Made by a program: the position numbers and the translations under genes. A stretch of DNA of 64,000 nucleotides from Spartobacteria bacterium (GTDB lineage: Bacteria; Verrucomicrobiota; Kiritimatiellia; RZYC01): positions 1,121 to 65,120 of the forward strand of contig RZYC01000002.1 of the NCBI GenBank assembly GCA_009930475.1, read 5' to 3'. How positions within the stretch are numbered: position 1 is the stretch's first letter; the number at the start of each line of letters is the position of its first letter. The notes beneath the pieces were generated by a model that saw only the letters and a list, made by a program, of their open reading frames with translations, searched no databases and was not told where the DNA came from. Positions 1-63,221 of the stretch are shown in pieces.

Positions 1-1737
1 ACCCAGGGTGCTCATGGTTCCAAAGAGAGCAATCCCGAAGACCGCACCGATCCCTAAGTAGGTGGTATTAAAAGCCTCCTCAAAGATAGAATATTCCCCC
101 ATGGTGGACGTGAACATAATACAGGCATTTTCCGCCTGCAATTTCCACATCTGTTCGGCAAAGGGATAGACTGCTGACGGGACTTCATTCAGTCCCCAGA
201 TAAAGTTCATAAAGAAGATCGATGCGATCAGAATAATGGGGAACAGCACCACCTGGGTTTTCCAGATACTGGTAAACTTGGTACCGGTCAGTTCGCACTG
301 CTTATAAAACACCACCATCTGGCCGTAATTCGCCATAGGGATGGGCAGGAACCAGCATTTCACCCCGGTATACCCACTGAGGATCAGCGATGCCTCCCGA
401 ATAAAGGGAATTTCCACCACCTGTCCGACCATGCCTTCCAGCCGTGTGGTCACATAACTGAGAATAGGCGTATAGACAAATCCAAGTAAAATCAGCACCA
501 CCATGATGCCCTTATGCCAGTCGATAAGCCAGCCCGACACCAGAATATAGGTAATGGTGACGAGGAAATAGACAAAGACCACAAACCAGGTATTGATATC
601 GCCGCGATCCTTTTTGACATCCATGGGATTCTTCGACCGTTTCTTCGTCGATTTATCCCGATTGCGGAAACTCTGATAGACCTGCCAGAAACCGGCCACG
701 GCCACGGCCACGGCAATCCCTATCTGGAAACTGAAGTAGAAATCGATGTTATTCTTATAGAGCGTAGAGATCGTTCCGTCGCCGGGCGTCCAGTGTTGCA
801 GGATACCGTAATGATAGAGCGTCGGATTCAGCACCATGGTCACGATCAGTCCAACAAAACTGCCCACCATAGCATAGAACGGCAGCACCATACCGAAGAT
901 GATATTCCCGAAATCCCAGGACATCCCTGTGGCCACGGCGCTCAGGTAATCGCCGGTGGTCTGAGTCCAGTCGGAGAACGGAATAGGCAGCACCTGGATG
1001 GTTTCTCCGGTCAGTGCGCCGGACAATGTAGGCAATAGCAGGTAGATAAAGCCGAAGCCCAATCCAATGGCTCCTCCAATGGAAAACACACGCCAGCGCC
1101 AGCGGCCCTCCTCATTTTCAATGGATTTCTCATCGGCATCTTCCGCCAGCGCACAGACACCCTGTGCACCCACTGGGGCCATGGGGAACGGCAGGCGTTC
1201 CACATCATTGGCGACACGAAACAAACCGTATCCCAGAACCGTACTGGCCAACTGACCAAAAAAGGTTCCAAAAATCATCATACCGATGACCGGCAGCCAG
1301 TCGGCATGGAAGAACGTGCGATCACCATAGGACGCCGAATCGGCGGCAGGGGCAAACCAGACCGGCAGCTGATCGGCAATACCGTGGGCAATAGCCGCAT
1401 CACTGCGTGCAAAGAACTGATTCCATATTAATCCGCCGAAAGGCGACCCCATTGCGGCGGCGGCCATAAAGAACAGCACAAAAATCTCGGGTCGTTTCAG
1501 GTTTTTGTGAGCCCGCTTGGCCACCTCAATAAAGAGAATCACCGTCACCCACTGCGAGGCGGCACCAATATTATCCACACCGGCCAGCAGTCCCATATAA
1601 ATGGCGCCCGGCACCATCAGCAGCGCGATAAACAGCGCCCCGACCAATGCCGTCCAGTTAAAGCCATCCTCGAACGTATCGGGGACTTCCATGACCTGCC
1701 GAAACTCTTCCAGTTCTTTATCTACTCTCGTTGCCAT
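1..1737 (-). CDS. Large polytopic membrane protein, family unknown. Partial: the C-terminus runs off the window start; at least 579 aa are visible.
   Basis: The ATG is the complement of 1735-1737 and translates MATRVDKELEEF... The frame is open to nt 1 and is not in the ORF track because there is no stop. Many hydrophobic helices and Gly/Pro-rich loops. The plus-strand ORF 514-1038 is antisense to it and is rejected. Confidence 0.55.
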   Translation of the reverse strand, partial: MATRVDKELEEFRQVMEVPDTFEDGFNWTALVGALFIALLMVPGAIYMGLLAGVDNIGAASQWVTVILFIEVAKRAHKNLKRPEIFVLFFMAAAAMGSPFGGLIWNQFFARSDAAIAHGIADQLPVWFAPAADSASYGDRTFFHADWLPVIGMMIFGTFFGQLASTVLGYGLFRVANDVERLPFPMAPVGAQGVCALAEDADEKSIENEEGRWRWRVFSIGGAIGLGFGFIYLLLPTLSGALTGETIQVLPIPFSDWTQTTGDYLSAVATGMSWDFGNIIFGMVLPFYAMVGSFVGLIVTMVLNPTLYHYGILQHWTPGDGTISTLYKNNIDFYFSFQIGIAVAVAVAGFWQVYQSFRNRDKSTKKRSKNPMDVKKDRGDINTWFVVFVYFLVTITYILVSGWLIDWHKGIMVVLILLGFVYTPILSYVTTRLEGMVGQVVEIPFIREASLILSGYTGVKCWFLPIPMANYGQMVVFYKQCELTGTKFTSIWKTQVVLFPIILIASIFFMNFIWGLNEVPSAVYPFAEQMWKLQAENACIMFTSTMGEYSIFEEAFNTTYLGIGAVFGIALFGTMSTLG

Positions 1738-1761
1738 ATATGCGCTCTCGTGTTGCGAAAT

Positions 1762-4700
1762 TTATTTAGATACTTTCGTCGACTTCAAATGGACCAGTGT
1801 TTCTGAACGATAATGCTCCATGGTTGCCTGCGGCAAGGAACGCCACAGCAGGAACTGCTGACGCAGATCATTCAACAACACCCGATTCAAACGTGCCCAG
1901 TCTTTCGGCTGGCCGGAAAGTCGTACAATGCGGATATTCACCTCATCGATACCCTCGATTTCGCTCTTAGCTGAGCGCAGGGCAAATTCCTGCGTGACAC
2001 CCAGATCGAAGGGAGCCAGAGCCAGCGTGGCCGACATGCCCAAGGCTCCATCCTTATAGACATCAATTTTTGCATTCTTCGACATAAACGATCCCAGTCC
2101 TGTATCGCTGAACTGGTCAAAATGCTCCTTCAGGAAACTCACCACACCGGTCAGGTCATAGGCCGACACCGTGAACGGGAAAATCAGATCAAACTCATCA
2201 TTATCCGGTTTCGGCAGTTTCCAGGAACGCAGGAGGCCGGGATTGGCACTTTTCGAGGCCTTGATAGCGGGATAAATGGCCGAAATCATAACCGTACCCA
2301 TGACAATCAGGATGGTGACAATCGCATTGGTGGAAGAATAATTCATTTCCGGCAGCTGCATCAGACCGTAGTTTGCCGCAATGCTCATCACCTTCATAGA
2401 TCCCTGAGCAATCAGATAGCCGCCCAGACCGCCCAACACACTGTACACCAGTGCTTCGGAGAAAAACAAACTGGCCACATGCGGGGGAGCGAGTCCCAGC
2501 GCACTGAAGGTGTAAATTTCTTTTTCACGGTCAGCCACAGAGCCCAGCATGGTGCCAAAAATCACCAGCCCGCCCAACAGAATCGGAAAAAATAAATCGG
2601 CGATACCACTGGCGGCAACAATCGTTCCCTGAATGTGGCGATACACCCCGTCGCGGCGCGTCCCCACAATGGGCGTTTTATCCATCATGCGCGCCATATC
2701 TTCGGCTATCGTGGTCGACTGCTGTGAATCTTCGGTATAAAGCGTAATAATATGAGGTTTTCCGCCCAAGCGACGCGCATTGCGCTCAGAGGTAATCACA
2801 ATCGAGTCAATGGGAAGGCTGGCCCAGGAACCCTGATCCGCCATGATATCATCCATGGATGACGTATCGCTCGATCCCGACTGCTTCATCTGCGCAAAAT
2901 CCACAGGAAGAATACTGCTTCCATCCATATCACGGGCGGCCGACAGCGATGAGGCACTCACAAATTCACCCACGCGCAACCGCAATCCCTTAAGAATCAC
3001 TTCCGCCCCCGGCTGCACATCCAGCAGATCCCCTACCGCATCGGTCATAAAGACCATGTCCTCGACATCTTCGGGATTTTCCAGCTTCAGCAGTTCCCGC
3101 AAATCTTCACGCTGCGAGAGTTCCGCTGCGGATAACCCGAGAATACCCTTCAAAATTACCGGATGAGTCGCATCGGAATGCGCCACTGCAAAATCCGGAT
3201 CAGAAGGAAATTCCGGACAGAGCCAGTAGCGATAAGACACCACGGAATCATCACTCCAGCGACCATTGATAATATCCAGAAAATCAGGATTAAAGGAGGT
3301 CCAGTTAGGCTGATGCAGTTCCACGCCCGTATAGGCGGGTGCCGGTGCGGTAAAGAGCTTCACAATCCCCTTCTGCGTATCAAAAGACGCAAAACCCAGA
3401 ATGGTAAAGGTCAGCAAAATAATCGTGACAGCCGTCAGCGCGGTACGCAATGGACGGCGGCGCATGGTGGAAATGCCCATATTCATGGCAGCAATCATCG
3501 TATTAATACGCGAAATATCCGACGCATGCACGGAAGTCGACATCCCCTGCATGGCTTTCAGTTCAAACTCGAACTTCTGCATAATAATCACGATCACCAG
3601 CACCGATAATACAACGATGGCGAATCCCAAGAAAATAATCACCGGCGTCTTGGCAATGGCAAAGGCCGGATGGGACATATACAGCACGAGGAACGTCAGG
3701 ACAAAGAAGAAGGTAAACCAGGCCACCTGTTTGTAAATCATGGTCGATCCCACCAGCAACCGTTCCAGTGCAAAGGCAAAAGGGACGCACAGTGCCAGCA
3801 GTACCAGCACCGCCTTCACCAGGTCATCCATGCTCGTGCGGATAATTTCATAGACCGGCTCCGACGACATATAGGCTGCACTGGACAGGGCTTCGGCGCG
3901 TACCGCATTATCGATGGTGGAGGCTTCCTCGATCATATCCTTCACACGGCCATGAGCCGCTTCCAGCGAACTGTTCATGATATCTCTGTCGCGCAGAATA
4001 TTCATGCGGCGTTCATTCAGCCGCCATAAATCACCGGCGGACCGCCTGGCATTGAGCAGCGAAAGCCAGTCGGTGGTCACCGGATAGCCTACGCCGTAAT
4101 TATCGTCCCTGCTCGTACCCACACTGGCCGGATCATTCACCAGCGCAACAATGGATCGCAAAGCAAAGGCTTTATAGCCCTTAATGGTGGAATCGGCGTA
4201 CCAATAGACCAATCCGTCCGTGGTTTCACAATAAGAACGTTCCGAACTTCCATCGGACAAAATGGCATTGGAGCGGGCATCCAGCAACTTCGCAGGTTTT
4301 GGCCAATATCCCGGAGGAAGCATCAGCACACCGCTTTCGCAGGGAAAGGTATTCAGCCGTTTCATCGCCGTGCTACGCGTGGTCATATCCGAGGCCATAG
4401 CCACCTGACCCCGCTCATCCAGTTTTGCGGCAAAGCCCACGGGTTTGGGATATTCCGATGGCAGGGCACCGGCCTCATAGGCGCCATTCTGATCGGTCAG
4501 CAAGACCCAGTAGGGTTCAAAAGCATAGGGCTTGGTATGATACCAGAAACAGGCATTCCAAGGCGTCCGCAAGCTGAGCTGCACAACAGCTCCGGCCTGA
4601 GCCGTATTGGGAATGGAGCTGCCGCGCTGGCGACCCATAACAATAGCACCGGTGGTACGCCCATTATCAAATCCCGGTACAATATACGTGGCATCCACGG

Positions 4701-6561
4701 GCATGGAGCGGCGCAGGGAAAGGCCTTCCTGATCGGCGATGGCCTCGGGTTCCGTCAGCTTCGAATCCTGACTGCCCACGGCAGTGAGAATGTGACCGAT
4801 TTCGTCCACATTGTTTTCCATCATGGTCAAATCATACTGATCTACGCGATCATCGGGCGTGCCTTCCAGCTCCAGCCGTTCAAAGACCGTACCCAGCACG
4901 ACATTATAAATGCCGTACCGTCCCGCCACTTCCCCGCCATGAATGAGATAGGGAGAAGCCCAGAGCAGACGGGGATTTCTAACCTTGCCGTCGATGGACG
5001 AAATTTCAAAATGTTCAGGACGCCCGCCCGTTTTTTCCAGCGACTGATAGGCCCGCATAAAACTGGACTGAACCTTCCCGTATAAGCCGGGACGATCCCG
5101 CTCGGCGTGCATTTCCGAATCGCCACCCACAATCAGACCCCAGCGATCGGTGCTCTGTCCCAGCATCAACGTGGAATGCAACGTAATCCACTTGTCTTTC
5201 ATCAGCATCTGCAGCGCTTCTGAACCGGCAAGAACAGCACTCAGCTGTGTCAGTTCCTTTTTACGGGCGGCCACGCTGTCGCGCAGCATCGACATGATAG
5301 CAAGAAAGTTAGGATCCTTCAGATTCTTAACATCTTTTCTACCCAGCTGTTTGCGCAGGGCATTCCACGCCTGATACTCCTTATCCAGATCGGCCACCCG
5401 TTTGGTTGCCACGGAACGGTCGCCATCTTTGGGAATAACAGCAAGGGCTTTTCTGGCATCGGCTAAATCGGCACGCACGGCATAGGACAAATCCTGAGCA
5501 TAATTACGTAAACGAAAAAGTAAATCACGCCCTTCGTCGCTGATGGTATCATCCAGCGGATTGGCCTCATTCATTTGCGCTTCTAATTTAGCAATGAAGG
5601 CGTCCTCTTCCTTGGCGGCCTTCAGACGATCGGCAATGGTTGCGCGGTTACCCTCGCCGTCCAGTGCCCAATAAAAATTAATGGTGCCGGAAAAATTGCG
5701 GGCTTCTCCGTCAAAAAAGGCAATGAGGATATGACGACGGGGACGGTTTTCCTTGATATATTCCGCCAGTTTCAGCAGACCCGCGCAATTGATCGCGGCC
5801 CGCCCGCCCGGCGATCGACGCGGCACTTCACCAAAGGAGTCATAGGGCGCGGCCAGAATAATCACCTCTTCTTTTTCTAAGTCAAAAACCGGATCGGTGC
5901 CCTTGAAAAAGGCCAGCACATTATGACCTGTCTCGCGTTTCCATTGAATGGCGCTCCTGATGGTGACCTGTGTCCCGTCAGGCAGTGCATCGCGGGAGCC
6001 GTCATAATAAAACCGGGGGAGATTGGCGTTGGCGCGGACATAATGGAAATTGCTGGCATCGGCCTTTTCACTTGAGACAAATACAACCGCTTTGGCACCC
6101 AGACGAAAGGCCCGCTGCCAATGGGTTCCGGCATTGTACTCCATAACCGCAATTTTATCGTGGGGATTGGCATTCTTAAAATCAGCATCGGTGCCATGCC
6201 CCACGTAGATCAGTTCGCCGGTCACACCTGCTTCATCTGTTACCGGAGGAATGACTACATTGGGACGCATGGGCACCAAATTGATTTTCTGGCCGTCCGG
6301 TAGCAGCATTTCGCATTCGATGACCTGGGTCTGTGCCACCGAAAAATCCTGGGTCAACAGCTCATCAGGAGCCATTTCCTCCAGACGTTTCGTAATGTAC
6401 GCGGCCGCCGCACTTCCATTCGCTGTACCAACAAGGCGATGGGGATATTTCCCGATTTCCCGGCTGTCCCGCTCAAAATCGGCCGTGACTCCATAAGACA
6501 GGGAGCATAACACCGAGGCGAGAAATGCTGTCACGCACCATTTTAAATACCGTCCATTCAT
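1762..6561 (-). CDS. Giant (1,599 aa) double-FtsX/MacB-type ABC permease with an N-terminal signal peptide, a PA domain, a catalytically degenerate M28 peptidase-like ectodomain, a coiled-coil region and a C-terminal cytoplasmic domain
   Basis: FtsX-like TM blocks: MRRRPLRTALTAVTIILLTF..., and a C-terminal ...GTMLGSVADREKEIYTFSALGLAPPHVASLFFSEALVYSVLGGLGGYLIA. N-terminal PA-like segment: KIAVMEYNAGTHWQRAFRLGAKAVVFV. M28-like motifs have their metal ligands replaced: PYDS for HxDS, GGRAAINCAG for GAxDDxSG, FFDGEAR for FxxEE. Confidence 0.6.
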   Translation of the reverse strand: MNGRYLKWCVTAFLASVLCSLSYGVTADFERDSREIGKYPHRLVGTANGSAAAAYITKRLEEMAPDELLTQDFSVAQTQVIECEMLLPDGQKINLVPMRPNVVIPPVTDEAGVTGELIYVGHGTDADFKNANPHDKIAVMEYNAGTHWQRAFRLGAKAVVFVSSEKADASNFHYVRANANLPRFYYDGSRDALPDGTQVTIRSAIQWKRETGHNVLAFFKGTDPVFDLEKEEVIILAAPYDSFGEVPRRSPGGRAAINCAGLLKLAEYIKENRPRRHILIAFFDGEARNFSGTINFYWALDGEGNRATIADRLKAAKEEDAFIAKLEAQMNEANPLDDTISDEGRDLLFRLRNYAQDLSYAVRADLADARKALAVIPKDGDRSVATKRVADLDKEYQAWNALRKQLGRKDVKNLKDPNFLAIMSMLRDSVAARKKELTQLSAVLAGSEALQMLMKDKWITLHSTLMLGQSTDRWGLIVGGDSEMHAERDRPGLYGKVQSSFMRAYQSLEKTGGRPEHFEISSIDGKVRNPRLLWASPYLIHGGEVAGRYGIYNVVLGTVFERLELEGTPDDRVDQYDLTMMENNVDEIGHILTAVGSQDSKLTEPEAIADQEGLSLRRSMPVDATYIVPGFDNGRTTGAIVMGRQRGSSIPNTAQAGAVVQLSLRTPWNACFWYHTKPYAFEPYWVLLTDQNGAYEAGALPSEYPKPVGFAAKLDERGQVAMASDMTTRSTAMKRLNTFPCESGVLMLPPGYWPKPAKLLDARSNAILSDGSSERSYCETTDGLVYWYADSTIKGYKAFALRSIVALVNDPASVGTSRDDNYGVGYPVTTDWLSLLNARRSAGDLWRLNERRMNILRDRDIMNSSLEAAHGRVKDMIEEASTIDNAVRAEALSSAAYMSSEPVYEIIRTSMDDLVKAVLVLLALCVPFAFALERLLVGSTMIYKQVAWFTFFFVLTFLVLYMSHPAFAIAKTPVIIFLGFAIVVLSVLVIVIIMQKFEFELKAMQGMSTSVHASDISRINTMIAAMNMGISTMRRRPLRTALTAVTIILLTFTILGFASFDTQKGIVKLFTAPAPAYTGVELHQPNWTSFNPDFLDIINGRWSDDSVVSYRYWLCPEFPSDPDFAVAHSDATHPVILKGILGLSAAELSQREDLRELLKLENPEDVEDMVFMTDAVGDLLDVQPGAEVILKGLRLRVGEFVSASSLSAARDMDGSSILPVDFAQMKQSGSSDTSSMDDIMADQGSWASLPIDSIVITSERNARRLGGKPHIITLYTEDSQQSTTIAEDMARMMDKTPIVGTRRDGVYRHIQGTIVAASGIADLFFPILLGGLVIFGTMLGSVADREKEIYTFSALGLAPPHVASLFFSEALVYSVLGGLGGYLIAQGSMKVMSIAANYGLMQLPEMNYSSTNAIVTILIVMGTVMISAIYPAIKASKSANPGLLRSWKLPKPDNDEFDLIFPFTVSAYDLTGVVSFLKEHFDQFSDTGLGSFMSKNAKIDVYKDGALGMSATLALAPFDLGVTQEFALRSAKSEIEGIDEVNIRIVRLSGQPKDWARLNRVLLNDLRQQFLLWRSLPQATMEHYRSETLVHLKSTKVSK

Positions 6562-6576
6562 TCGTTTGCCTTGCTC

Positions 6577-7464
6577 CTATTCAATACTGCCAAGTTCAAC
6601 TTCGACTTCATCGCGTTTTGCGATGCGTTCAATCTGTCCGTCGCGAATCCATAAAAGTCTATCGCACACATTCATCATGCGATGATCATGCGTGGCGCAA
6701 ATGATGGTGACCCCCTTCTCTTTATTCAGCTTCTGGAGAATATCTAGAATCTCCTGCCCCGTATGCTGATCCAGGTTGGCGGTGGGTTCATCACATAATA
6801 AAATGCCGGGCTGATTCGCCAGCGAACGGGCAATGGCCACACGCTGTTGCTGCCCGCCGGACATTTCGATAGGTTTATGAAACCAGCGCTGTTTCAATCC
6901 CACCAGATCCAGTAAATCCATGCCTCTGTTACGCGCCACATCGGGTTCCACACCGCCAAAAGCCATGGGTGTGGTCACATTTTCCAGTGCGGTCATATAT
7001 TGAATCAAATTGTACTGCTGGAAAATATACCCGATTTTCCGGCAACGCAGAAAAGCCAGTTCTTCCGCCGTCAGCTGAGCGACATCCACCTCATCGATAA
7101 AAACGCGGCCTTCACTGGGACTGTCCAGCGCACCAATCATATTAAAGAAGGTGCTTTTACCCGATCCCGACGGACCCATCACCACAATAAATTCTCCGGT
7201 ATAGATTTCCATATCTACCCCGCGCAGCGCATGAGTGACTTCCCCGCCTCGATTATAAATCTTTTTCATCCCGATGGATCGGATGATAACGCGAGAGGAG
7301 GCGCCCGCTGCCGGTTTCGCGTCCTCTGCCTGGGTCAGCGCCTCCGACACCGATTCTTCTTTAACGACAGGCTTTTCGCTGTCGCACTCCCTGTTCGATG
7401 TCATGTCTGCCTTTGCCGGCTTATTTTTTTTCTGAGTCTTTTTATTTTTCGCCATTTGAATCAC
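6577..7464 (-). CDS. ABC transporter ATP-binding protein of the MacB/LolD type, with a roughly 70-aa Lys/Glu-rich N-terminal extension
   Basis: Walker A GPSGSGKST, signature LSGGQQQRVAIARSL, Walker B ILLCDEPTANLD, H-loop ATHD. It lies 8 nt from the upstream FtsX gene. Confidence 0.85.
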   Translation of the reverse strand: MIQMAKNKKTQKKNKPAKADMTSNRECDSEKPVVKEESVSEALTQAEDAKPAAGASSRVIIRSIGMKKIYNRGGEVTHALRGVDMEIYTGEFIVVMGPSGSGKSTFFNMIGALDSPSEGRVFIDEVDVAQLTAEELAFLRCRKIGYIFQQYNLIQYMTALENVTTPMAFGGVEPDVARNRGMDLLDLVGLKQRWFHKPIEMSGGQQQRVAIARSLANQPGILLCDEPTANLDQHTGQEILDILQKLNKEKGVTIICATHDHRMMNVCDRLLWIRDGQIERIAKRDEVEVELGSIE

Positions 7465-7472
7465 CCTGAAAA

Positions 7473-8942: not shown

Positions 8943-8954
8943 ATCAATAAGCCC

Positions 8955-11057
8955 TTAGGATGGCATAATAATAAACGGCTTCGGCTGATCACCGGTAATC
9001 AAATAGTAAATCGCACTGATGATCATGGGCAGAACCCCGCCCAGCATCTCGCCTGCAATCAACCCGAACATCAAAGGCTTCAATTTCTGATAGAATCCGG
9101 CTCCGCCATACTTGGTCACCGCCATTTTAATCAGCCATCCAATCAGGAAGGACTGGGCAAAACACTTACCGGAATAGGTCGACCACACTAGGAACATAAC
9201 CGGATGGAAAGGCCACTTGGTAAAACGCAGACGCAGTGCAGAGAAGAGCAGCACACAGCCCGCAGCCACGCCAAAAACAATCATACCCTGTTTGTGGGGC
9301 TGAGCACCGGTATAACGAGCCAGCCCCGTTGCCGTTCCGGCGTCCTGCAGCTGGCCCTGTGCTTCGAGGCGCTGCATGTTGGCAATGGTTTCATTGAAAG
9401 GATTCTGCGACTGCTGATTCTGCCATGCCGACAAGTCAATGCCGCGATTATACTGGAAATAAAGCGTCACCGGAATCCCCACACCCAGTCCGACCACCAG
9501 TGCCAAAACAATCATGGCGGCGGAACGGCCGACTTTCACCTTGGTATCGTCAGCCAGTTTCAGGGCATTAACCACAAAAGGCATCAGGGCTTCGCGCGGG
9601 TCGTAAAACAATATGAGACAGAACATGAACATGGTCAGAATGGCCGCCGGCCCCAGTGCTTTCGGCCCCAGCACCGCCAGAATAATCGTTGCCGGCGTGC
9701 CGGCGGTCACAATAAAGAAGACGCCGGTTTCCGCGATCATTCGGCCCATTACCAGATACACCGCCATGGTACACAGACCGAACAGCACCGCAATAGACCA
9801 GGGAAGCCCCGCATAATAGGTGCTGTAAAAGGTAAACAGAATCAGGGAAAGGACAAACAGCCGGGCACCCCAGATCGAGGTCGGCGCAATCTTTTCTTTT
9901 CCGCCCATGCCAAAGGATTTGCGGAAGACCGCCAGATAGTAATAGCGACCGGTATACAACAGCACCAGCAACATGGCGAAATACGCGCCCATATTGAACA
10001 TGTTTTCACGATTGATGCCGAAGGGCCACTGTCCCTGCCACCCGGAATTGGCCACCCCGTACATGGACAGCATACCCGTCAAAGTAATCCATATAAAGGG
10101 TCCGATACCCATGGAAAACGATACGTCCGTGGGCAGGAAAAAGGCGATGGCGATCACTGTGAAGAAAATCGAATAGTACCCGGAAAGGAAGCCGACGCCC
10201 CCGCCCTGTTTAAAGGCTGGAAACAATTCACCCAGCGAACTGAAGTCCACGCCGCTGGGAATCGCCCCCATCAGATAGGATGGGAACCAGACATTGAGGT
10301 AGTTGTAGACATAAATACCGAAGACAATAAACATCGCGACCCAGAAAGAACGATCTTTGAAAACCGGGCTCTCACTGCCGTCCTCATTAGGCAGCAGCGA
10401 CTTGGTAAAAGTCACCAGCGGATAGGGTAAATGCTCGTGATCCACCCATTGCTTGTGCACCACCAGCGATAGACCGAGCAGGCCGAGCCATAGCGATAAA
10501 ATAATCGGCAGCCAGAATTTCATACTGGGCAGCCATGCCTTCCAGGGGATTTCCGAGAAGGCCACACTCTTGTTACCCTCGCCCAGTCCGCGAATAAATC
10601 CGTTCAGCACCGTATCTTCATTCTGCGGGGTCACCTCAGCCAGCATCCCGTCGGGGACCATCTCCATGACGTTCTGCTTTTCCCAGCCCGGTTCGGTTTT
10701 TTCAAAACGATGCGGCATAATCAGCGACGGCGTAAACAGTCGCAGCAGATTGGCTCCGGGAATGGCACAGGCAGGTAGCATGATCACCAGAATCGTCGCA
10801 ATTTCCGCGCGGGTCAGACAGAATCTTCTCCCGAATTTACGTAGCAGCGGATACAGCAGAATCATAAATAAAACCAGCGCCCCATAAATGGATATCGGCA
10901 TATTATTACCGATAAACATCGTCTGGCGCATGATACTATCATTAAAGTAGGTATAACTGGTGACAAATGCCACGCCAAGCAACCCAATCAACACAGCCCT
11001 GATTGACACGAATACAACCTCACTCACATACGATTTATCACCACTCTGCAAACACAC
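8955..11057 (-). CDS. Polytopic integral membrane protein (700 aa), family unknown
   Basis: Hydrophobic helices throughout; no recognisable catalytic motif. It lies 11 nt downstream of the PqqD-like gene and 12 nt upstream of the FtsX gene. The antisense ORF 9204-10430 is rejected. Confidence 0.55.
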   Translation of the reverse strand: MCLQSGDKSYVSEVVFVSIRAVLIGLLGVAFVTSYTYFNDSIMRQTMFIGNNMPISIYGALVLFMILLYPLLRKFGRRFCLTRAEIATILVIMLPACAIPGANLLRLFTPSLIMPHRFEKTEPGWEKQNVMEMVPDGMLAEVTPQNEDTVLNGFIRGLGEGNKSVAFSEIPWKAWLPSMKFWLPIILSLWLGLLGLSLVVHKQWVDHEHLPYPLVTFTKSLLPNEDGSESPVFKDRSFWVAMFIVFGIYVYNYLNVWFPSYLMGAIPSGVDFSSLGELFPAFKQGGGVGFLSGYYSIFFTVIAIAFFLPTDVSFSMGIGPFIWITLTGMLSMYGVANSGWQGQWPFGINRENMFNMGAYFAMLLVLLYTGRYYYLAVFRKSFGMGGKEKIAPTSIWGARLFVLSLILFTFYSTYYAGLPWSIAVLFGLCTMAVYLVMGRMIAETGVFFIVTAGTPATIILAVLGPKALGPAAILTMFMFCLILFYDPREALMPFVVNALKLADDTKVKVGRSAAMIVLALVVGLGVGIPVTLYFQYNRGIDLSAWQNQQSQNPFNETIANMQRLEAQGQLQDAGTATGLARYTGAQPHKQGMIVFGVAAGCVLLFSALRLRFTKWPFHPVMFLVWSTYSGKCFAQSFLIGWLIKMAVTKYGGAGFYQKLKPLMFGLIAGEMLGGVLPMIISAIYYLITGDQPKPFIIMPS

Positions 11058-11068
11058 ACCGACCCGTC

Positions 11069-11464
11069 TTAAATGATCTGAACGGCCAGTGCACCTTTTT
11101 TTACTAAAACGCTAATATAGTTTATAACGGAGATGCGTGCCTCATGGAAAGTAATAAAATACTTTTTCGAAAAAGCCTCCACAACCTCTTCTACCATAGG
11201 ACTTTCTGAACACATATCTAAAACCTCCGCGCCCAGTTTATCGATCTCCAGCACCTTTTCATCCGGTAAACGCATAATCCAGCTGATGGGCGGTATACAC
11301 CATTTCGGTTTACGGTTTTTTACCGCAATGTACAACATACCCTCCTCGTCGGGCCCTTCGACCTTGACCGCCACATTACGTATGACACGCGAACGCAGCA
11401 TGGATTCCCAGGAACTGTCCCCGACACGAAAACAGGCATCCGGCTTTTTTTTCTGTTTAGACAT
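11069..11464 (-). CDS. PqqD-like protein (RiPP recognition element fold), stand-alone
   Basis: C-terminal three-helix segment KVLEIDKLGAEVLDMCSESPMVEEVVEAFSKKYFITFHEARISVINYISVLVKKGAL is typical of PqqD/RRE, preceded by beta-strand-like VKVEGPDEEGMLYIAV. Its start codon overlaps the upstream stop (TAATG). Confidence 0.55.
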   Translation of the reverse strand: MSKQKKKPDACFRVGDSSWESMLRSRVIRNVAVKVEGPDEEGMLYIAVKNRKPKWCIPPISWIMRLPDEKVLEIDKLGAEVLDMCSESPMVEEVVEAFSKKYFITFHEARISVINYISVLVKKGALAVQII

Positions 11465-12327
11465 TATTTGATGCCTCCGAAAGGCTGACAGCAGCTCACA
11501 TAATCAAAAGGCGCTTTTTCACACGCCGGCTTTCCCGTCGGGCGCACCACTAAAAAGCGATATATCCGCTGATCCACCGGACAGCGCCAGCACATAGACT
11601 GATAGGTTCCATTAGGATGCGCCAGCCCCTTGCGCACAAAATCCCCCGACATATCCCAGATTTTATGTCCGCCCGCCGTTCGCGTGCTTAATTCGCCGTG
11701 CACACATTGTTTATCCAGCCGGTTTACCGCCCAGTCCTCCAGCGGCACCGTCAACCAGGTGTCCACCATACCCAGGCGTTCGATCTGCCAGAAATTGTTT
11801 TTCTTTCCATAGGTATATCGCGCCAGCGCCGGCTGAATCAGGCATTCGGTCATAGGAAAACGACGGGGAACCCGCACATTTAATCCCCAGGCCCGGCGTG
11901 TAATCATCCCCTGCCCGTCTGCCGCATTGAACTGCACACTGAATAAAATGGTATTTTCCAAACGTACATCACGCTGATCCGGCCACAGAAAAACCAGTTC
12001 CACCAAAATCCCGGGCTGCTCCAGATAGATCCCGAACCGGCTGACCATGATGCCGTTCTGCATTCCGCACAGCCCGTGAAATCCAGCCCCGCCTTTCACA
12101 TTGACCGCATCCTTTAATCCGCCCCTATCTGTCAGACGATGCTGATAGTCCGACATCATGCGATCGAAGTCCGGTTCTCCCCCCACTTCTTTCCAGTCGA
12201 CTTCTAAACGAAATCGATAGCGATCCGCAAAGGCACAGCGCCCCGACACATCACTGCGTGAAAATTGCAACATCTCCCATTCATCCGGGATATCCAGCGA
12301 AATCTGATTCCAACACACGTTTTGCAT
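11464..12327 (-). CDS. Hypothetical Cys-rich cytoplasmic protein (287 aa), no recognisable family
   Basis: No TM segments. C-terminal CWRC ... CEKAPFDYVSCC resembles a zinc ribbon. Translationally coupled to the PqqD-like gene. Confidence 0.5.
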   Translation of the reverse strand: MQNVCWNQISLDIPDEWEMLQFSRSDVSGRCAFADRYRFRLEVDWKEVGGEPDFDRMMSDYQHRLTDRGGLKDAVNVKGGAGFHGLCGMQNGIMVSRFGIYLEQPGILVELVFLWPDQRDVRLENTILFSVQFNAADGQGMITRRAWGLNVRVPRRFPMTECLIQPALARYTYGKKNNFWQIERLGMVDTWLTVPLEDWAVNRLDKQCVHGELSTRTAGGHKIWDMSGDFVRKGLAHPNGTYQSMCWRCPVDQRIYRFLVVRPTGKPACEKAPFDYVSCCQPFGGIK

Positions 12328-12385
12328 AGCAGATATGCATAGTTAAACGCGCAAATCATTGCAATAAAGATATAACGAATACGAA

Positions 12386-12895
12386 TTATCGCTCAAGAAA
12401 ACGACGGAGCGTGTCGTTTACCGCGCGATGAATGGCGGTACAGGTACGGGTTGCGCCGCTCACCGCATCCACCGCGAGCGGCTGGCCGGATGCGATGTCT
12501 TTTCCCGCAAACCGGTCAAGAAAACCTTCTGATATCACCATGTCAACATAGGGCGGCGTATCACCGCTTTCTACTAAAATAACGCGCACCAGTTTCGTTC
12601 CGGACGGATCGATGTGAAGCATCAGCGATGTGGGACCGCGATAACCGACGGGCGCGGAAACATCTCCGGTTAGAACAACCCATCCGACATGAGGCGCATA
12701 GCCCCAACGGAATGGGTCGGAATGCAGCTCGAGCTCTGTCACTCCCAGCTTTGACGCAGCGATGTCACGCCATTGCGCATCAGAGACGGGGGTCAAGTCA
12801 TCATGACGGCCTTTGGCATAGCCCATCGAACCGGCCAGGCCGGTTACGATGAGAATAATACATATGTACCAACTGTTTTTCATTAGAACGTCCAC
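12386..12895 (-). CDS. Secreted FMN-binding domain protein (FMN_bind; candidate flavinylated extracytoplasmic redox protein)
   Basis: Signal peptide or N-terminal anchor WYICIILIVTGLAG. Hallmark VDAVSGATRTCTAIHRAVNDTL: in FMN_bind proteins the Thr in SGAT is the flavinylation site. Confidence 0.7.
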   Translation of the reverse strand: MDVLMKNSWYICIILIVTGLAGSMGYAKGRHDDLTPVSDAQWRDIAASKLGVTELELHSDPFRWGYAPHVGWVVLTGDVSAPVGYRGPTSLMLHIDPSGTKLVRVILVESGDTPPYVDMVISEGFLDRFAGKDIASGQPLAVDAVSGATRTCTAIHRAVNDTLRRFLER

Positions 12896-13839
12896 ATGGC
12901 AATGCAGTTGACCGTATAATCCGGTGATGCACCCGTGCGCGAAGCATAGGGAACCGTTCCCTGAAGCACGATTTTTCTTTTACTGTAATCGGTGGTCATT
13001 GGGTAGAACTGTATTCCCGCCAATACATTGTGACTGTATGTATACTGCTCCTCCGTCCCGTCCAAAATGGTGTCATCTTTCTGTGTGGACATCCATCCGC
13101 CGGCACCCAGTTTCATTTCAAACCAGCGGCCCAGCGTTTTTTCCACCACCATCTGATAGTTCACCACATCGGGTACGTCCTGACCGGAACGTTTGAACGG
13201 AAATCCCGTGACGCCATCGCTTTCAGCGGCATCGCCCCGCCATTCGTAAATAACGTGAGCGGCATATTCGACAAAATCGTCATGGATTCCACCGTGCAGC
13301 AACGCGCCCAGCTGCGCTTTATTGCATCCGGCAGAAAGTCCGGCGACCAATGCTTCATCATCGTCTACAACCCCATAACCAAAAGCCGCACCCAGGCTGA
13401 CTTTGGTATAATTGAATTCCGATTCCGGATTATGCGAGTCGATGATAAAGTATTTACCCGCCAGCCAAATTTCGGTCAGACCCGATTCGCTGAACGAGGC
13501 CGTTTTACCTGCCAAATTCTTTTTCTCGGTATCCACTGATGCATATTTCAATTCCACACCGATATCGCAGCGCGATGAAAGTCCGTACCCCAGACGCACA
13601 TTACTGCTAATCAATTCTTTTTTGGTCAAACCGGCCCCGTCGTCGATATCAACCATTTCGCCTTTCTGGGCATTCCATTTTTCGGTCATATCCGCATATG
13701 TCACACTCAATCGCGGCCAGATCGTTCCTTTCATAATCCCATTGGGACATCCCAGAATATCTGCCGCCATGGTTGGCACACTCAACGTGGTTACCCCGAT
13801 CGCAGCCACCACGGCCATCATCGTTTTCCTGTTTTTCAT
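12883..13839 (-). CDS. Outer-membrane beta-barrel protein (porin-like), with signal peptide
   Basis: MKNRKTMMAVVAAIGVTTLSVPTMAAD signal. Alternating amphipathic strands. C-terminal aromatic residue ...AMWTF, typical of BAM substrates. Confidence 0.55.
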   Translation of the reverse strand: MKNRKTMMAVVAAIGVTTLSVPTMAADILGCPNGIMKGTIWPRLSVTYADMTEKWNAQKGEMVDIDDGAGLTKKELISSNVRLGYGLSSRCDIGVELKYASVDTEKKNLAGKTASFSESGLTEIWLAGKYFIIDSHNPESEFNYTKVSLGAAFGYGVVDDDEALVAGLSAGCNKAQLGALLHGGIHDDFVEYAAHVIYEWRGDAAESDGVTGFPFKRSGQDVPDVVNYQMVVEKTLGRWFEMKLGAGGWMSTQKDDTILDGTEEQYTYSHNVLAGIQFYPMTTDYSKRKIVLQGTVPYASRTGASPDYTVNCIAMWTF

Positions 13840-13917
13840 TTGTATCCTTTTCTGTTTTTTATTGGTTACTGTTTCAAATATCAGAACGATCTGATATTTG
13901 TGATAAATACCTGCATT

Positions 13918-14082
13918 TTATAAACTTCCAATCATTGGAACTTTTTTTTGGGCGGCATTTTGCATGGGGCAGTGACGACAATGTCCTGTGCAGCCGCTGC
14001 CCCCCTTCGTTTCTTTGTGAAGGAAACGGAAAACGCTCCATCCAGCAACTGCAACGAGTGCGATAATGATCATCATTTCCAT
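13918..14082 (-). CDS. FeoB-associated Cys-rich membrane mini-protein (about 54 aa)
   Basis: MEMMIIIALVAVAGWSVFRFLHKETKGGSGCTGHCRHCP: one TM helix plus a Gly/Cys cluster, as in FeoB-associated Cys-rich proteins. Its start is 3 nt from the feoB stop. The last 9 codons (KKVPMIGSL) are contributed by a REP palindrome. The longer 114-aa ORF-track version is rejected because it overlaps feoB. Confidence 0.55.
   Translation of the reverse strand: MEMMIIIALVAVAGWSVFRFLHKETKGGSGCTGHCRHCPMQNAAQKKVPMIGSL
13921..13948. repeat. REP-like palindrome (cttccaatcattggaac plus T-run)
   Basis: Member of the dispersed GTTCCAATCATTGGAAC hairpin family. Overlaps the 3' end of the FeoC-like mini-gene. Confidence 0.7.
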
Positions 14083-14084
14083 TG

Positions 14085-16163
14085 TCAGACCCCTATTCCG
14101 GCGAGTGAACCGATTTGATAGACAGCGGTCGTGAGAACCCAGGCAAGCAGCGTCAGACCACCCAGCTGGAATAAGGCCCAGCGCCATGAATTGGACTCGC
14201 GTTTCGTTACGGCGATCGTCGCCATGCAGGGCGCACTGATGAGACAAAAGAGCATGATGCAAAATCCGGTCAGCGGATTGTAATGCTTCTGTAGCTGTTC
14301 ACGCAGCGGCTGCGAGGTCTCGTCGCTTTCCCCCACCGAATAGACAATGCCAAGCTGAGCGACAAACACTTCTTTGGCGGCAAACGCTCCGATTAATGCC
14401 GTCCCAATGCGCCAGTCAAATCCCATAGGTTTGATCACCGGCTCCATCACATGCCCGATTCTCCCGGCAAAGGTATGAGCAAGCTGTTGAGATTGTTGCA
14501 ATTCCTCGGACAGTGATGGATCCGGCGTAGATTGTGGAAAAGTCGTCAGTGCCCACAAAAGAATAGAGATTCCCAAAATCAGGGTTCCCGCTTTTTTAAG
14601 GTACAGTTTACTGCGTTCCCACACGTGAATCATGATTCCGCTGAACGTAGGCACACGATAGGGCGGCAGTTCCATCACAAAAGGTTCTGTGGGACCTTGT
14701 AAAACACTGATGCGTAAAATCTTTGCAACCACAACGGCCAGAACGAGTCCGATGATATAAATCAGCCACAGCAGCGGGGCCTGCCATGGTTTGGCAAAGA
14801 AAGCCGGAATAATCAGTGCATAAATGGGCAGACGAGCCCCGCAACTGGACAGGGGAACAACAAACATTGTGGTAAGCCGATCGCGCCGGTTATCCAGCGT
14901 ACGTGTGGCCATAATCGCCGGAACCGAACAACCGAATCCTATGAGCATCGGAATAAAACTTTTGCCATGCAGCCCGATTTTATTCATCAGGCGATCCATA
15001 AGAAAGGCGGCGCGCGCCATATAACCGGTGTCTTCGAGTACGGCAATGGCCAAAAACAACAGCAATATATTGGGAAGGAAAATGAGCACGCCGCCCACGC
15101 CGGCAATAATCCCGTCTGTCACCAGGGAATGAATCAGTTCCATTTGATCCGCCGGCCAGATGCTGTCGACCCATCCCGTCAACGCACCAAATCCCGCATC
15201 AATCCAGTCCATAGGCAACGCACCAAAAGTAAACGTCATATAAAAAACGCAATACATAAGCACGGCGAAAATAGGCAGGCCCAGCACGCGATGTGTGACA
15301 ATATGATCCACGCGATCGGACATGGAAACACGCTGTTCGACGGATGATCGTATGGATTGCTGAATGACCCCGGATATAACCCCGTAGCGCTGCTCTGCAA
15401 TAAGAATATCCGGTTCATCTCCGGTGACATGTATCAGGCGCTCTACTTCCTTGTCCACCACGGCCAGCACAGCCGGAGTCGTCGCGTCCATCATCTCATC
15501 ATCACGTTCCAGCAGTTTCACCGCAGTCCAGCGTATCTGTTCCGGGTTTTTTGAGGAATCCTCCGAAAAGAGCTGCCAACCGATCAGATCCAGACTTTTC
15601 TCAACTTCCTTTCCGTACCGTACATCCAGCGGTGCAGGTCGCGATGATGCCGTCATGACGGCTTCGATCTCCGCAGTCACATCGTCCAGCCCCCGCCCCT
15701 TTGACGCAACCACTGGAATGACTGGAACCCCCAGCAAAACCGCCATTTTCTTCAAATCAATGGCCATTCCGCGCGACTGGGCCACATCCATCATGTTCAA
15801 CACCACAATCAGAGGAACCTTCATCTCCAATAATTGAAAAGTCAGATAAAGGTTGCGTTCAATATTTGATGCATCCACCACGTTGACCACGACGTCCGGC
15901 GTCTGATGCAGCAATTCCTGACGCGCCACCCGCTCTTCCACACTATGAGCCGCCAGACTATAGGTGCCGGGCAGATCGGTGATTTCCATGCGCCATTGAC
16001 CCGACTCACGAACCCCTTCCTTTTTTTCGACGGTAACACCCGGATAATTCCCCACGTGCTGCCGTGAACCGGTCAATCGATTAAATAATGTTGTCTTGCC
16101 GGAATTGGGATTCCCGGCCAATGCAATACGTATCGTCTGCATGTATATCTCACTCCTTGTCAT
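14085..16163 (-). CDS. feoB: Ferrous iron transporter FeoB
   Basis: N-terminal G-domain IALAGNPNSGKTTLFN..., DLPGTYSL, NMMD, then a large polytopic permease domain. The true start may be the internal M at complement 16142. Confidence 0.9.
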   Translation of the reverse strand: MTRSEIYMQTIRIALAGNPNSGKTTLFNRLTGSRQHVGNYPGVTVEKKEGVRESGQWRMEITDLPGTYSLAAHSVEERVARQELLHQTPDVVVNVVDASNIERNLYLTFQLLEMKVPLIVVLNMMDVAQSRGMAIDLKKMAVLLGVPVIPVVASKGRGLDDVTAEIEAVMTASSRPAPLDVRYGKEVEKSLDLIGWQLFSEDSSKNPEQIRWTAVKLLERDDEMMDATTPAVLAVVDKEVERLIHVTGDEPDILIAEQRYGVISGVIQQSIRSSVEQRVSMSDRVDHIVTHRVLGLPIFAVLMYCVFYMTFTFGALPMDWIDAGFGALTGWVDSIWPADQMELIHSLVTDGIIAGVGGVLIFLPNILLLFLAIAVLEDTGYMARAAFLMDRLMNKIGLHGKSFIPMLIGFGCSVPAIMATRTLDNRRDRLTTMFVVPLSSCGARLPIYALIIPAFFAKPWQAPLLWLIYIIGLVLAVVVAKILRISVLQGPTEPFVMELPPYRVPTFSGIMIHVWERSKLYLKKAGTLILGISILLWALTTFPQSTPDPSLSEELQQSQQLAHTFAGRIGHVMEPVIKPMGFDWRIGTALIGAFAAKEVFVAQLGIVYSVGESDETSQPLREQLQKHYNPLTGFCIMLFCLISAPCMATIAVTKRESNSWRWALFQLGGLTLLAWVLTTAVYQIGSLAGIGV

Positions 16164-16209
16164 TAGGACTTCCTAACTTTTGGTATAAAAAAAACACAAT
16201 GAAAAATCC

Positions 16210-16443
16210 CTACGACGGGGCCACCAGAATGCCGTGCGCCATACCGCGTCCAATCGCAAAACGACTTTCCTTCATTTTGATGAGCAGCGGCCCCGGCTGA
16301 CTGCTGATCACCTCCAGAGAACAACCGGGATAAATGCCCAGCGAAGCCAGCCTCGCACAGCGATGATGTCCCCCGTTCACACTGCAAACCGTAAGCGGTG
16401 TACCACTGGGAGCCATAGTCAACGACATGCCGGACTTAATCAT
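16210..16443 (-). CDS. feoA: FeoA
   Basis: 77 aa, SH3-like FeoA pattern ...RLASLGIYPGCSLEVISSQPGPLLIKMKESRFAIGRGMAHGILV. The ORF 16163-16387 in another frame is rejected. Confidence 0.75.
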   Translation of the reverse strand: MIKSGMSLTMAPSGTPLTVCSVNGGHHRCARLASLGIYPGCSLEVISSQPGPLLIKMKESRFAIGRGMAHGILVAPS

Positions 16444-17185
16444 GATGCACCTGCACTAAAATAGCAGCGGCTTCCGTTTTTCGCAGCGAAAGATGATAGC
16501 CCCGAATTTTGAAATCAATGGGATCACCCATGGGGGCTTTGCGTACAACCTCAATCGTCACGCCCCTGGAAACGCCCATTTCCGCCAATTTCAGGCGTAA
16601 CGCCCCCGTCGCCTCAATCTTTTCGACAACACCCCGATCCCCGGCATCCATCGCTTCGGCAAGGATCGAAGTACATGTTTGCTCTCTCATTTTTTCTGCC
16701 TCCTCCAGCTGCGTCAGACACGACTCTATACAGGGACGACACTGACTTTCCTTATTCATTTCACTACACTGATAACTCAGCCCGCGAATCCATTTCAATC
16801 CGGCACGCGGACACGTCTCGATAAATTCAGTAAACTGCACCAGCCGATCAATCACCTCGCGCGACGCCGCATGTTCCAGCAGACACGCCTGTTCATCCGC
16901 AACCGCAGGATCAATACACAAAACAGACGTCAAAAAAAGCCGCAATATCTCATGCTTACGCACGACCGCTTTGGCAAGTGCCTCCCCTTCATCAGTCAAT
17001 GTAACAGCGGCATATTTCTTATAATGCACCAGCTTCTTTTCTGCCAGCGTTTGAAGCATCTCCGTCACAGAAGGTTTTCGCACGGATAAGCGGTTGGCAA
17101 TATCGGTTGTCCGCGCACCGCCTCCTTCGCGTGATAACATCCAGATCGCTTCTAAATAATCTTCAAGTGCCGCACTGATCGCCAT
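16436..17185 (-). CDS. DtxR/IdeR-family metal-dependent transcriptional repressor with a C-terminal FeoA/SH3-like domain
   Basis: N-terminal HTH MAISAALEDYLEAIWMLSREGGGARTTDIANRLSVRKPSVTEMLQTL. The C-terminal FeoA-like segment GVTIEVVRKAPMGDPIDFKIRGYHLSLRKTEAAAILV. The gene overlaps feoA by 8 nt. Confidence 0.85.
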   Translation of the reverse strand: MAISAALEDYLEAIWMLSREGGGARTTDIANRLSVRKPSVTEMLQTLAEKKLVHYKKYAAVTLTDEGEALAKAVVRKHEILRLFLTSVLCIDPAVADEQACLLEHAASREVIDRLVQFTEFIETCPRAGLKWIRGLSYQCSEMNKESQCRPCIESCLTQLEEAEKMREQTCTSILAEAMDAGDRGVVEKIEATGALRLKLAEMGVSRGVTIEVVRKAPMGDPIDFKIRGYHLSLRKTEAAAILVQVHHD

Positions 17186-17210
17186 GACAATATCCTCTCT
17201 CGTTCAATAT

Positions 17211-17224
17211 TTAGGGCAACCTAA
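17211..17224. promoter_or_regulatory. Candidate DtxR/IdeR-type operator (TTAGG-GCAA-CCTAA inverted repeat) about 26 bp upstream of dtxR
   Basis: Perfect 5+5 inverted repeat with the TTAGG/CCTAA half-site of iron boxes, in the leader of the dtxR-feoAB array. Confidence 0.4.
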
Positions 17225-17368
17225 CTACCGACTCCCTTCGTGTCAACAAGAGAATTGGCAAAAACAATCATCGTGGCACCCATGCGACGTTTAATCAATC
17301 ATATATTCTTATATAGGCTGGAGATATTTATTCAAACAGCCATAATGATCCAATAATGAACAGGTGAA

Positions 17369-53871: not shown

Positions 53872-54048
53872 TCATAAACACGAGCCATACTCCACACCCG
53901 TCACGTCACATGGAAAACCGATGCAGAGGATGCTATTTTGAGTACGCCAAATCAAATTAAAAATGGAAATATGCCTATGCATATATTAATCTGACTTATT
54001 ATTAATTTCTCCTTGACTTACAATCACACACACGCCACATTCACAGAC

Positions 54049-63210: not shown

Positions 63211-63221
63211 ACGGTCGTTTT

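Follow-up and report, generated by a model that had tools for sequence, protein, structure and literature searches.

A packed minus-strand gene array in a Kiritimatiellia bacterium probably joins a DtxR/Feo iron-uptake operon to an independently conserved transporter cassette

Introduction

At one end of a 64,000-nucleotide (nt) stretch of a Spartobacteria bacterium genome (Kiritimatiellia; a metagenome-assembled genome, contig RZYC01000002.1, positions 1,121 to 65,120; hereafter the window), the minus strand carries an unbroken run of 13 tightly packed open reading frames (ORFs) between positions 1 and 17185. The run opens with genes for ferrous-iron (Feo) uptake and continues into genes for an ATP-binding cassette (ABC) machine with very large membrane partners, which raises the question of whether this is one system or two. 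The original prediction, made from the letters of the DNA, was that the Feo genes, a flavoprotein, a RiPP recognition element (RRE; RiPP, ribosomally synthesized and post-translationally modified peptide) and the ABC machine form a single iron-responsive system. Our analysis favors, with a probability of roughly 60%, an array of two functionally independent units placed head to tail on one strand. Unit A (17185-12386, minus strand) has the order dtxR-feoA-feoB-FeoB-associated peptide-g5-g6, and unit B (12327-1 and past the window start, minus strand) is an eight-gene cassette running from g7 through a PqqD-like gene (g8), a DUF6785 gene (g9), an FtsX gene (g10), an ABC ATPase gene (g11), the gene of a giant membrane protein (g12) and an OPT permease gene (g13) to a second ABC ATPase gene, ABC2.

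Results and discussion

Conservation of the cassette across genomes

The evidence that carries this division is comparative. Two scans, one with a DUF6785 alignment against one genome per species and the other with an alignment of the OPT-like protein against metagenome contigs, together gave 160 loci, and g12 and g13 are both present in 103 of these (two further look-ups included). Loci were then compared by tblastn with all window proteins, and co-occurrence was counted over 163 other loci carrying cassette genes, in 44-121 of which each cassette gene was detected. The order g10-g11-g12-g13-ABC2 is invariant across the loci, and median identities are high: 79% for g11 (120 loci), 71% for ABC2 and 66% for g13 (range 58-84%, 112 loci). 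Wherever both are detected, g7 and g8 are adjacent and upstream of g10, and in some proteins (P0128) they are fused; several loci show only one of the two (g7 was found in 44 and g8 in 64 of the 163). The position of g9 varies, as it can lie before g7, between g8 and g10, or after ABC2. The carriers are labelled Kiritimatiellia/Verrucomicrobiota, Lentisphaerae/Victivallales, Planctomycetota (Brocadiia, Phycisphaerae), Sumerlaeia and Fibrobacterota. The cassette is thus composed of known families in an undescribed, strongly conserved combination, and full-text literature searches returned no paper on DUF6785/DUF6784 or on the joint occurrence of PqqD, FtsX and OPT proteins, in keeping with the earlier statement that no described system resembles the distal ABC/FtsX part with its giant partners.

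Unit A behaves differently. The same tblastn comparison gave zero homologues of dtxR, feoA, feoB, the mini-protein gene, g5, g6 or the upstream amidohydrolase gene in the 163 other loci, about 20 of which include 6-10 kb upstream of the cassette. In other genomes g7 is preceded by unrelated, often divergent genes and by 100-250 nt of non-coding DNA; annotated neighborhoods place an RHS toxin gene, a hydrogenase operon, a UDP-glucose pyrophosphorylase gene or a divergent arginine operon there. Downstream of ABC2 no gene is conserved. In 132 crudely called flanking ORFs every Pfam family occurs at most four times, and none of the 25 most frequent families listed is metal-related. Because unit A has no homologue in the 163 loci and g7 has an upstream region of its own, the cassette is autonomous and the array splits in two: in the other loci the cassette stands without an iron linkage. 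The single iron-responsive system is therefore not supported, since the cassette genes co-occur very strongly with one another, whereas their link to Feo is found in no other locus, an outcome that the original prediction had itself named as a refutation.

A few further features of these neighborhoods were recorded. The most frequent family in the cassette flanks is PF05635 (23S_rRNA_IVP, a four-helix bundle; 4 of 132 ORFs), small genes of which lie between the OPT gene and ABC2 in two loci (L082:21433-21969 and L084:21396-21827). Two Brocadiia genomes carry a tandem duplication of the DUF6785 gene at the cassette head (L034:9992-14085 and L037:7781-12016), and adjoining g7 and g8 genes were undetected there.

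Layout of the array

The compactness of the array was described correctly from the outset. When gaps are computed with ATG starts, which gene calls made independently on L081, a second assembly from this organism, reproduce, the 13 consecutive minus-strand genes are separated by -8 to +78 nt, with overlapping stop and start codons. Within unit A the gaps are -8 (dtxR/feoA), +46 or +67 depending on the start chosen (feoA/feoB), +2 (feoB/mini-protein), +78 (g4/g5) and -1 (g5/g6, a TAATG overlap at 12883). A gap of +58 separates g6 from g7, after which the cassette continues with -1 (g7/g8, a TAATG overlap at 11464), +11 or +59 (g8/g9), +12 (g9/g10), +8 or +17 (g10/g11), +15 (g11/g12) and +24 (g12/g13). 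Past the window start, the second assembly shows g13 running to completion and then ABC2, so the array comprises at least 14 genes.

Proteins of the cassette

Nearly all of the domain assignments first made from the letters are right, as Pfam and NCBIfam recover DtxR, FeoA, FeoB, FeoB_associated, FMN_bind, PqqD, FtsX and ABC_tran; the larger proteins required revision. The first gene of the cassette, g7 (11464..12327, minus strand), encodes a 287-amino-acid (aa) cytosolic protein with a tandem PsbP/Mog1/DcrB-like fold. This fold is of a non-enzymatic binding type (PsbP/Mog1), and the family counts about 900 representative sequences. A transposase identity for g7 was considered and rejected: the Y1_Tnp gene that occupies the g7 position in one locus (L084:8587-9501) is not homologous to it. 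The start of g8 (11069..11464, minus strand) overlaps the g7 stop, and its product is a PqqD-like, RRE-type peptide-binding protein (Pfam PqqD, E = 5.5e-6; 27.1 bits against a cutoff of 23.4). Like the recognition elements of RiPP systems (PqqD, lasso-peptide B1), it passes the Pfam PqqD threshold and has weak NCBIfam matches to lasso and WgkC PqqD families; unlike RiPP clusters, the cassette has no precursor or tailoring enzyme, and the fixed partner of g8 is a PsbP/Mog1-fold protein within a transporter cassette.

Two of the membrane proteins are OPT-like. The product of g9 (8955..11009, minus strand), earlier listed as a 700-aa membrane protein, is indeed polytopic and is now assigned by Pfam to DUF6785 plus DUF6784, with 684 aa from the ATG. 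Its fold is shown here to be that of the OPT/Yellow-Stripe family, with the barley Fe(III)-phytosiderophore transporter YS1 (PDB ID: 7wsr) as the closest solved relative. In sequence this kinship is undetectable: g9 does not rise above the gathering score of Pfam OPT, and hhalign gives a probability of 9.6%. Placing DUF6785 in the Yellow-Stripe fold is a small new annotation. The protein described as a membrane protein of at least 579 aa is g13 (1..1737, minus strand), a 659-aa OPT-family permease that crosses the window edge, with its first 579 residues inside. The full gene on the second assembly matches Pfam OPT at E = 6.8e-12 (45.3 bits against a cutoff of 25.8; profile positions 104-616 of 623). 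Known members of the OPT/YSL family, such as barley YS1, are lone proton symporters and are not known to act within ABC cassettes. PDB sequence searches with g9, g13, g5 and g8 returned nothing useful.

The remaining cassette proteins belong to the MacB/LolCDE/FtsEX superfamily. A single-unit FtsX/MacB-type permease with an extracytoplasmic domain of about 300 aa is encoded by g10 (7473..8942, minus strand; Pfam FtsX 1.5e-15); its PDB sequence matches (MacB, LolF, LolC/E, YtrF, FtsX) span the C-terminal transmembrane (TM) part only. The g11 product (6577..7455, minus strand; Pfam ABC_tran 3e-31) is a MacB/LolD-type ATPase with LolD, DevA, FtsE and MacB as its best NCBIfam matches, all under equivalog cutoffs, and the next ORF after g13, beyond the window start, is ABC2 (Pfam ABC_tran 4e-26 on the second assembly). 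The largest protein, of 1,599 aa, is that of g12 (1762..6561, minus strand; Pfam FtsX 8e-12, Peptidase_M28 1.4e-4). It consists of an N-terminal anchor, an extracytoplasmic region of about 880 aa with a PA/M28-like domain, a TM cluster, a second ectodomain, an FtsX domain and a cytosolic tail, and hydropathy places the TM clusters at residues 9-27, 910-1001, 1037-1062 and 1312-1435. The M28 score is marginal (22.0 against 21.3), and in alignment with the aminopeptidase 2ek8 the motif HHDS is replaced by PYDS, NDDASG by GGRAAI and AEENG by DGEAR. The zinc ligands and catalytic Glu of M28 metallopeptidases (H, D, E-E, H) are thus not conserved, so the domain is catalytically dead and g12 was rightly called a degenerate M28 fusion. 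The accompanying description as a double FtsX protein did not stand: one FtsX domain is detectable, the second is a matter of hydropathy only, and self-comparison shows no detectable similarity between the first TM cluster and FtsX.

With FtsX domains in g10 and g12, ABC_tran domains in g11 and ABC2 and PDB matches to MacB, LolF, LolC and FtsX, the cassette falls among type VII ABC systems. As in known members, g10 and the C-terminal half of g12 have the four helices of an FtsX domain, the first of them followed by a large extracytoplasmic insert, and g11 and ABC2 are closest to the nucleotide-binding domains of LolD, DevA, FtsE and MacB. The differences are that the ectodomains have no MacB_PCD match, that one permease has 1,599 aa and a dead M28/PA domain, and that the system comes obligately with two OPT-fold permeases and a PqqD-like protein, an association described for no member. 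It is not LolCDE (LolD, 216 bits against a cutoff of 308; lolCE, 55 against 362) or FtsEX (FtsE, 202 against 265; FtsX, 27-29 against 225-255) by NCBIfam scores, and no HlyD or outer-membrane efflux protein (OEP) gene of a MacAB-TolC system is in the cassette at any locus. Elsewhere in the window, TolC-like OEP and HlyD-family adaptor genes lie at 39039-41845 (minus strand), about 22 kb away from the cassette; no pump gene adjoins them, and they are not conserved with the cassette.

The only prior computational trace of the cassette is the PADLOC profile CARF_m8--CARF_LolE_TM, which matches g12 at E = 1e-53 over residues 872-1482, a span that takes in both TM clusters and the second ectodomain. 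This match is confined to the membrane part (model positions 30-596 of 810), shows no CARF domain and leaves the 117-aa g12 tail beyond it unassigned. Genes of CRISPR or defence systems are absent from the vicinity of the cassette, and none recur in its flanks.

DUF6785 genes outside the cassette

The DUF6785 family also occurs alone. Lone genes were seen at L083:10001-12022 and at about 30 loci among L036-L080; some Lentisphaerae and Planctomycetota have several per genome, and the cultured Oligosphaera ethanolica has one. At some of these loci the neighbors encode lyase_8 or other polysaccharide lyases, sulfatases, BNR sialidase-like proteins, heparinases or GFO/IDH/MocA proteins. Such company fits an importer family, and it suggests that DUF6785 proteins are unannotated importers of glycan breakdown products.

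The DtxR/Feo operon

Unit A is an ordinary DtxR-controlled ferrous-iron uptake operon, already known biology, with g5 and g6 as lineage-specific additions. Its first gene (g1; 16436..17185, minus strand) encodes a DtxR-family metalloregulator in which all three Pfam domains of DtxR/IdeR regulators are found: the helix-turn-helix (Fe_dep_repress, 2e-18), dimerization (Fe_dep_repr_C, 1e-20) and FeoA/SH3-like (FeoA, 7e-19) domains. It overlaps by 8 nt the feoA gene (g2; 16210..16443, minus strand; Pfam FeoA 4e-16), which is followed by feoB (g3; 14085..16163, minus strand; FeoB_N 2e-66, Gate 1e-41, FeoB_C 2e-18 and FeoB_Cyto). The start of feoB is at 16163 or 16142, and the gene call on the second assembly gives 685 aa. 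With the FeoB G-domain, Gate and FeoB_C regions and a small FeoA in place, the third small component is the 54-aa FeoB-associated Cys-rich membrane peptide of g4 (13918..14082, minus strand; Pfam PF12669, 4e-8). The order dtxR-feoA-feoB plus PF12669, the overlaps and short gaps, and a half-site palindrome at the promoter are all shared with FeoABC loci under a DtxR-family repressor. A PF12669 peptide downstream of feoB has been described in a Feo survey (PMC8749426). Here, a secreted protein and an FMN_bind protein follow feoB, whereas the survey contains none of the terms 'FMN', 'porin' and 'outer membrane'.

The 318-aa secreted protein of g5 (12883..13839, minus strand) is a candidate outer-membrane beta-barrel. 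It has a signal-peptide-like N-terminus and a C-terminal ...AMWTF that closes with Phe, and no Pfam, NCBIfam or PDB match supplies a family or structure; it is probably an outer-membrane protein. The product of g6 (12386..12883, minus strand) is a membrane-anchored or secreted FMN_bind protein (Pfam FMN_bind 3e-11), the translation of which has a hydrophobic N-terminus, indicating an extracytosolic location, and the ApbE flavinylation motif DAVSGAT, of the [ST]GA[ST] type. It is weakly similar to RnfG/NqrC, and a word-based homologue search recovered only g6 itself.

Meheust et al. 2021 (PMC8238504) tied flavinylated FMN_bind proteins to iron assimilation alongside the transporters VIT1 and P19/FTR1. 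Like those proteins, g6 combines an FMN_bind domain, an N-terminal anchor and a DxxSGAT motif with a position beside a ferrous-iron transporter; unlike them, it accompanies Feo rather than VIT1 or P19/FTR1, and the window ORFs scanned include neither an ApbE nor a membrane partner for electron transfer. By this analogy, g6 would act as an extracytosolic electron carrier or ferric reductase that gives FeoB its Fe2+. Because flavinylated FMN_bind proteins are tied to iron assimilation elsewhere, such a periplasmic reductase role is a reasonable inference, and it would be a modest extension of known biology.

Promoter, operator and terminator signals

The array is headed by a promoter-like TTGACA (17246-17241) and the palindrome TTAGGTTGCCCTAA (17224-17211), both read from the sequence of the minus strand (17211..17246). 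Lying 26 nt before the start of dtxR, the palindrome is a candidate operator for DtxR; its exact match is unique in the window, and matches with three mismatches are not above chance there. Its left half is identical to the DtxR/IdeR half-site, TTAGGTT, and its spacing is shorter than that of the 19-bp DtxR/IdeR consensus. The element is plausibly an autoregulated operator of atypical spacing. A second palindrome resembling it, TTAGGAAGTCCTAA (16163-16176, minus strand), overlaps the feoB ribosome-binding site and start codon; looser matches of this type occur at chance level (6 against 3.3 expected).

The boundary between the Feo unit and the cassette, set by comparative genomics, is the 58-nt AT-rich g6/g7 gap (12328..12385, minus strand). 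No terminator, promoter or DtxR-like site scored in this gap. Across the intergenic gaps of the array the consensus scan likewise placed neither promoter-like nor terminator-like sites, with totals that match those of shuffled sequences, so that the internal signals that could have split the transcript, as the original prediction had allowed, were not detected. A promoter-like site does lie at 12883-12855, just within the start of the FMN_bind gene, where that gene overlaps g5 by 1 nt. Since the g6/g7 gap has no terminator, co-transcription, and hence iron-dependent expression of the cassette, is possible in this organism. The cassette may be reached by read-through from the Feo promoter, which would then reflect its chance location here and not a trait of its own; if real, read-through would be, together with the YS1 fold match, the sole real hint of a metal connection.

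No Rfam family was found in positions 1-22000 of the window or upstream of g7 in nine related loci, and no operator is shared upstream of g7 among 39 loci. Two local elements were observed there. One is a 26-nt perfect AT-centered palindrome, GTCTCGGTTATAATTATAACCGAGAC, shared by three closely related loci of Kiritimatiellia, where it precedes the g7 homologue by about 140 nt (L012:2135-2160, L019:2284-2309 and, with one mismatch, L016:~8541-8566); it is absent from the window and the other loci and could be an operator or a hairpin. The other, in one subclade, is a leader of about 75 nt just upstream of the g7 start, TTTTGGCTTTCAnGGGG...TTGTGGTTGTCTGCGG...GTGCAGGCGAAAAC (L012:2220-2296, with equivalents in L016, L017, L019, L044 and L050). 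RNAalifold gives this leader only -8 kcal/mol, with no covariation support and no Rfam match.

Proposed mechanism and alternatives

What might the cassette do? In type VII ABC transporters, cytosolic ATP powers the movement of periplasmic domains; OPT proteins import oligopeptides or metal chelates by proton coupling, and PqqD-like domains bind peptides. We prefer, at about one chance in three, to read the cassette as a peptide or chelate uptake machine. It would contain two type VII mechanotransmission engines (g10 with g11, and g12 with ABC2), two OPT/Yellow-Stripe-fold permeases (g13, a true OPT protein, and the DUF6785 protein g9) and a cytosolic PqqD-like peptide binder (g8) paired with a PsbP/Mog1-fold adaptor (g7). 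The ATP-driven ectodomains, including the dead M28/PA module as a binder, would capture a peptide-like or small chelate substrate in the periplasm, or release it there, and pass it to the OPT-fold permeases for proton-driven import, and in the cytosol the PqqD/PsbP pair would receive the substrate or gate the ATPases. We infer the pairing of the subunits, the direction of transport and the substrate; import is favored because characterized OPT members import and because lone DUF6785 genes lie beside catabolic genes.

Several points weigh against two separate units and an uptake function for the second. The 58-nt g6/g7 gap contains no terminator, and the comparison loci are all distant (g9 identity of 65% at most) and lie outside the immediate lineage. 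In unit A, the roles of g5 and g6 are unverified predictions, and none of the window ORFs scanned is an ApbE, RNF, NQR or PepSY-type gene. In the cassette, g9 has an iron-phytosiderophore transporter as its nearest relative of solved structure, so a metal-chelate substrate is still possible. PqqD-like domains otherwise come from peptide biosynthesis, which follows an export-side logic rather than one of uptake, and the cassette has no periplasmic binding protein or outer-membrane receptor. A physical coupling of OPT-fold and FtsX proteins is suggested only by gene order.

A bolder version of the uptake reading is tentative and somewhat doubtful. In it, g7-ABC2 would be an unrecognized class of envelope transport machine, with two type VII engines obligately coupled to two OPT-fold permeases and an RRE-type binder, and its capture here by a DtxR/Feo operon would point to a metal-chelate or metallopeptide substrate.

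The alternatives are each weakened because the partner genes that they would need are absent. We consider it unlikely that the array is one DtxR-controlled, iron-responsive super-operon in which the cassette works with Feo, for instance in metallophore import or export through Yellow-Stripe-like permeases with ABC-driven extraction of chelates from the periplasm. Such an operon would account for the common strand, for gaps of at most 78 nt without terminator-like sites, for the DtxR-like candidate operator at the head of the array and for a redox flavoprotein, g6, directly upstream of the cassette. It sits poorly with the absence of Feo, DtxR, FMN_bind and g5 homologues near the cassette (0 of 163 other loci), of metal-related families among the 25 most frequent listed for the 132 flanking ORFs, of a metallophore biosynthesis gene in the cassette and of a DtxR-like site before g7, and with the cassette having its own upstream region elsewhere. 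The match of g9 to barley YS1 and the place of g13 in the OPT/YSL family would also suit metallophore transport, but the YS1 fold match names a family and not a substrate, and the other OPT clade carries peptides.

It is improbable that the cassette is instead a peptide exporter, in which the PqqD-like RRE and its PsbP-fold partner would recognize a ribosomal peptide encoded elsewhere, the OPT-fold proteins would take it across the inner membrane and the MacB-type engines would expel it from the periplasm. PqqD-like domains, to which g8 is matched by Pfam and NCBIfam, are the leader-recognition element of RiPP systems, and peptides are among the periplasmic substrates that MacB-type pumps expel; the similarity of the ATPase extends to DevA and bacteriocin/darobactin exporter ATPases, under their cutoffs, and the g7-g8 fusions argue for joint action on one ligand. 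Yet no precursor, tailoring enzyme, leader peptidase, membrane-fusion protein or TolC-like gene was found in or beside the cassette at any locus, and conserved small ORFs did not show up either, in a search that was not exhaustive for them. The g7 fold is non-enzymatic, OPT transporters are known as importers, and the cross-phylum median identities of 66-79% for g11, g13 and ABC2 are unusual for natural-product exporters.

Very improbable, in our estimate, is an FtsEX-like envelope remodeler, in which the dead-peptidase domain of g12 and the g10 ectodomain, moved by ATP, would switch on hydrolases in the periplasm while the OPT-fold permeases recycle the released peptides. A parallel is FtsEX-EnvC, which also combines a type VII architecture with a degenerate peptidase-like module, the LytM domain that regulates amidases. 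The cassette has no membrane-fusion or outer-membrane partner, and its strong conservation suggests a housekeeping role. Against it, NCBIfam FtsE/FtsX scores are far under their cutoffs, no hydrolase gene is linked to the cassette, the cassette is limited to a few phyla, and the PqqD-like protein would be left without an explanation. A defence system was rejected, since PADLOC gives only generic ABC matches and the match to the g12 membrane region, and no defence genes recur nearby.

If the cassette is one machine, as the uptake reading holds, MacB-type mechanotransmission engines would here be seen for the first time in partnership with OPT-family secondary permeases, and an RRE-type peptide binder for the first time in a transporter rather than in a biosynthetic pathway. 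Such a machine would also give a function to DUF6785/DUF6784 and to the g7 family, which are abundant in poorly studied anaerobic bacteria of the Planctomycetes-Verrucomicrobia-Chlamydiae group, and the lone DUF6785 genes beside glycan-degrading genes suggest a major unannotated importer class in these phyla. The Feo part matters less, as it adds one more flavinylatable periplasmic protein beside a ferrous-iron transporter.

Other features of the window

The window also contains two Y1_Tnp (IS200-like) ORFs, at 33828-34787 (minus strand) and 54013-55029 (plus strand). Near its far end, at 58432-63561 on the minus strand, lies an ORF of 1,709 aa with no Pfam match at E<=1e-5.

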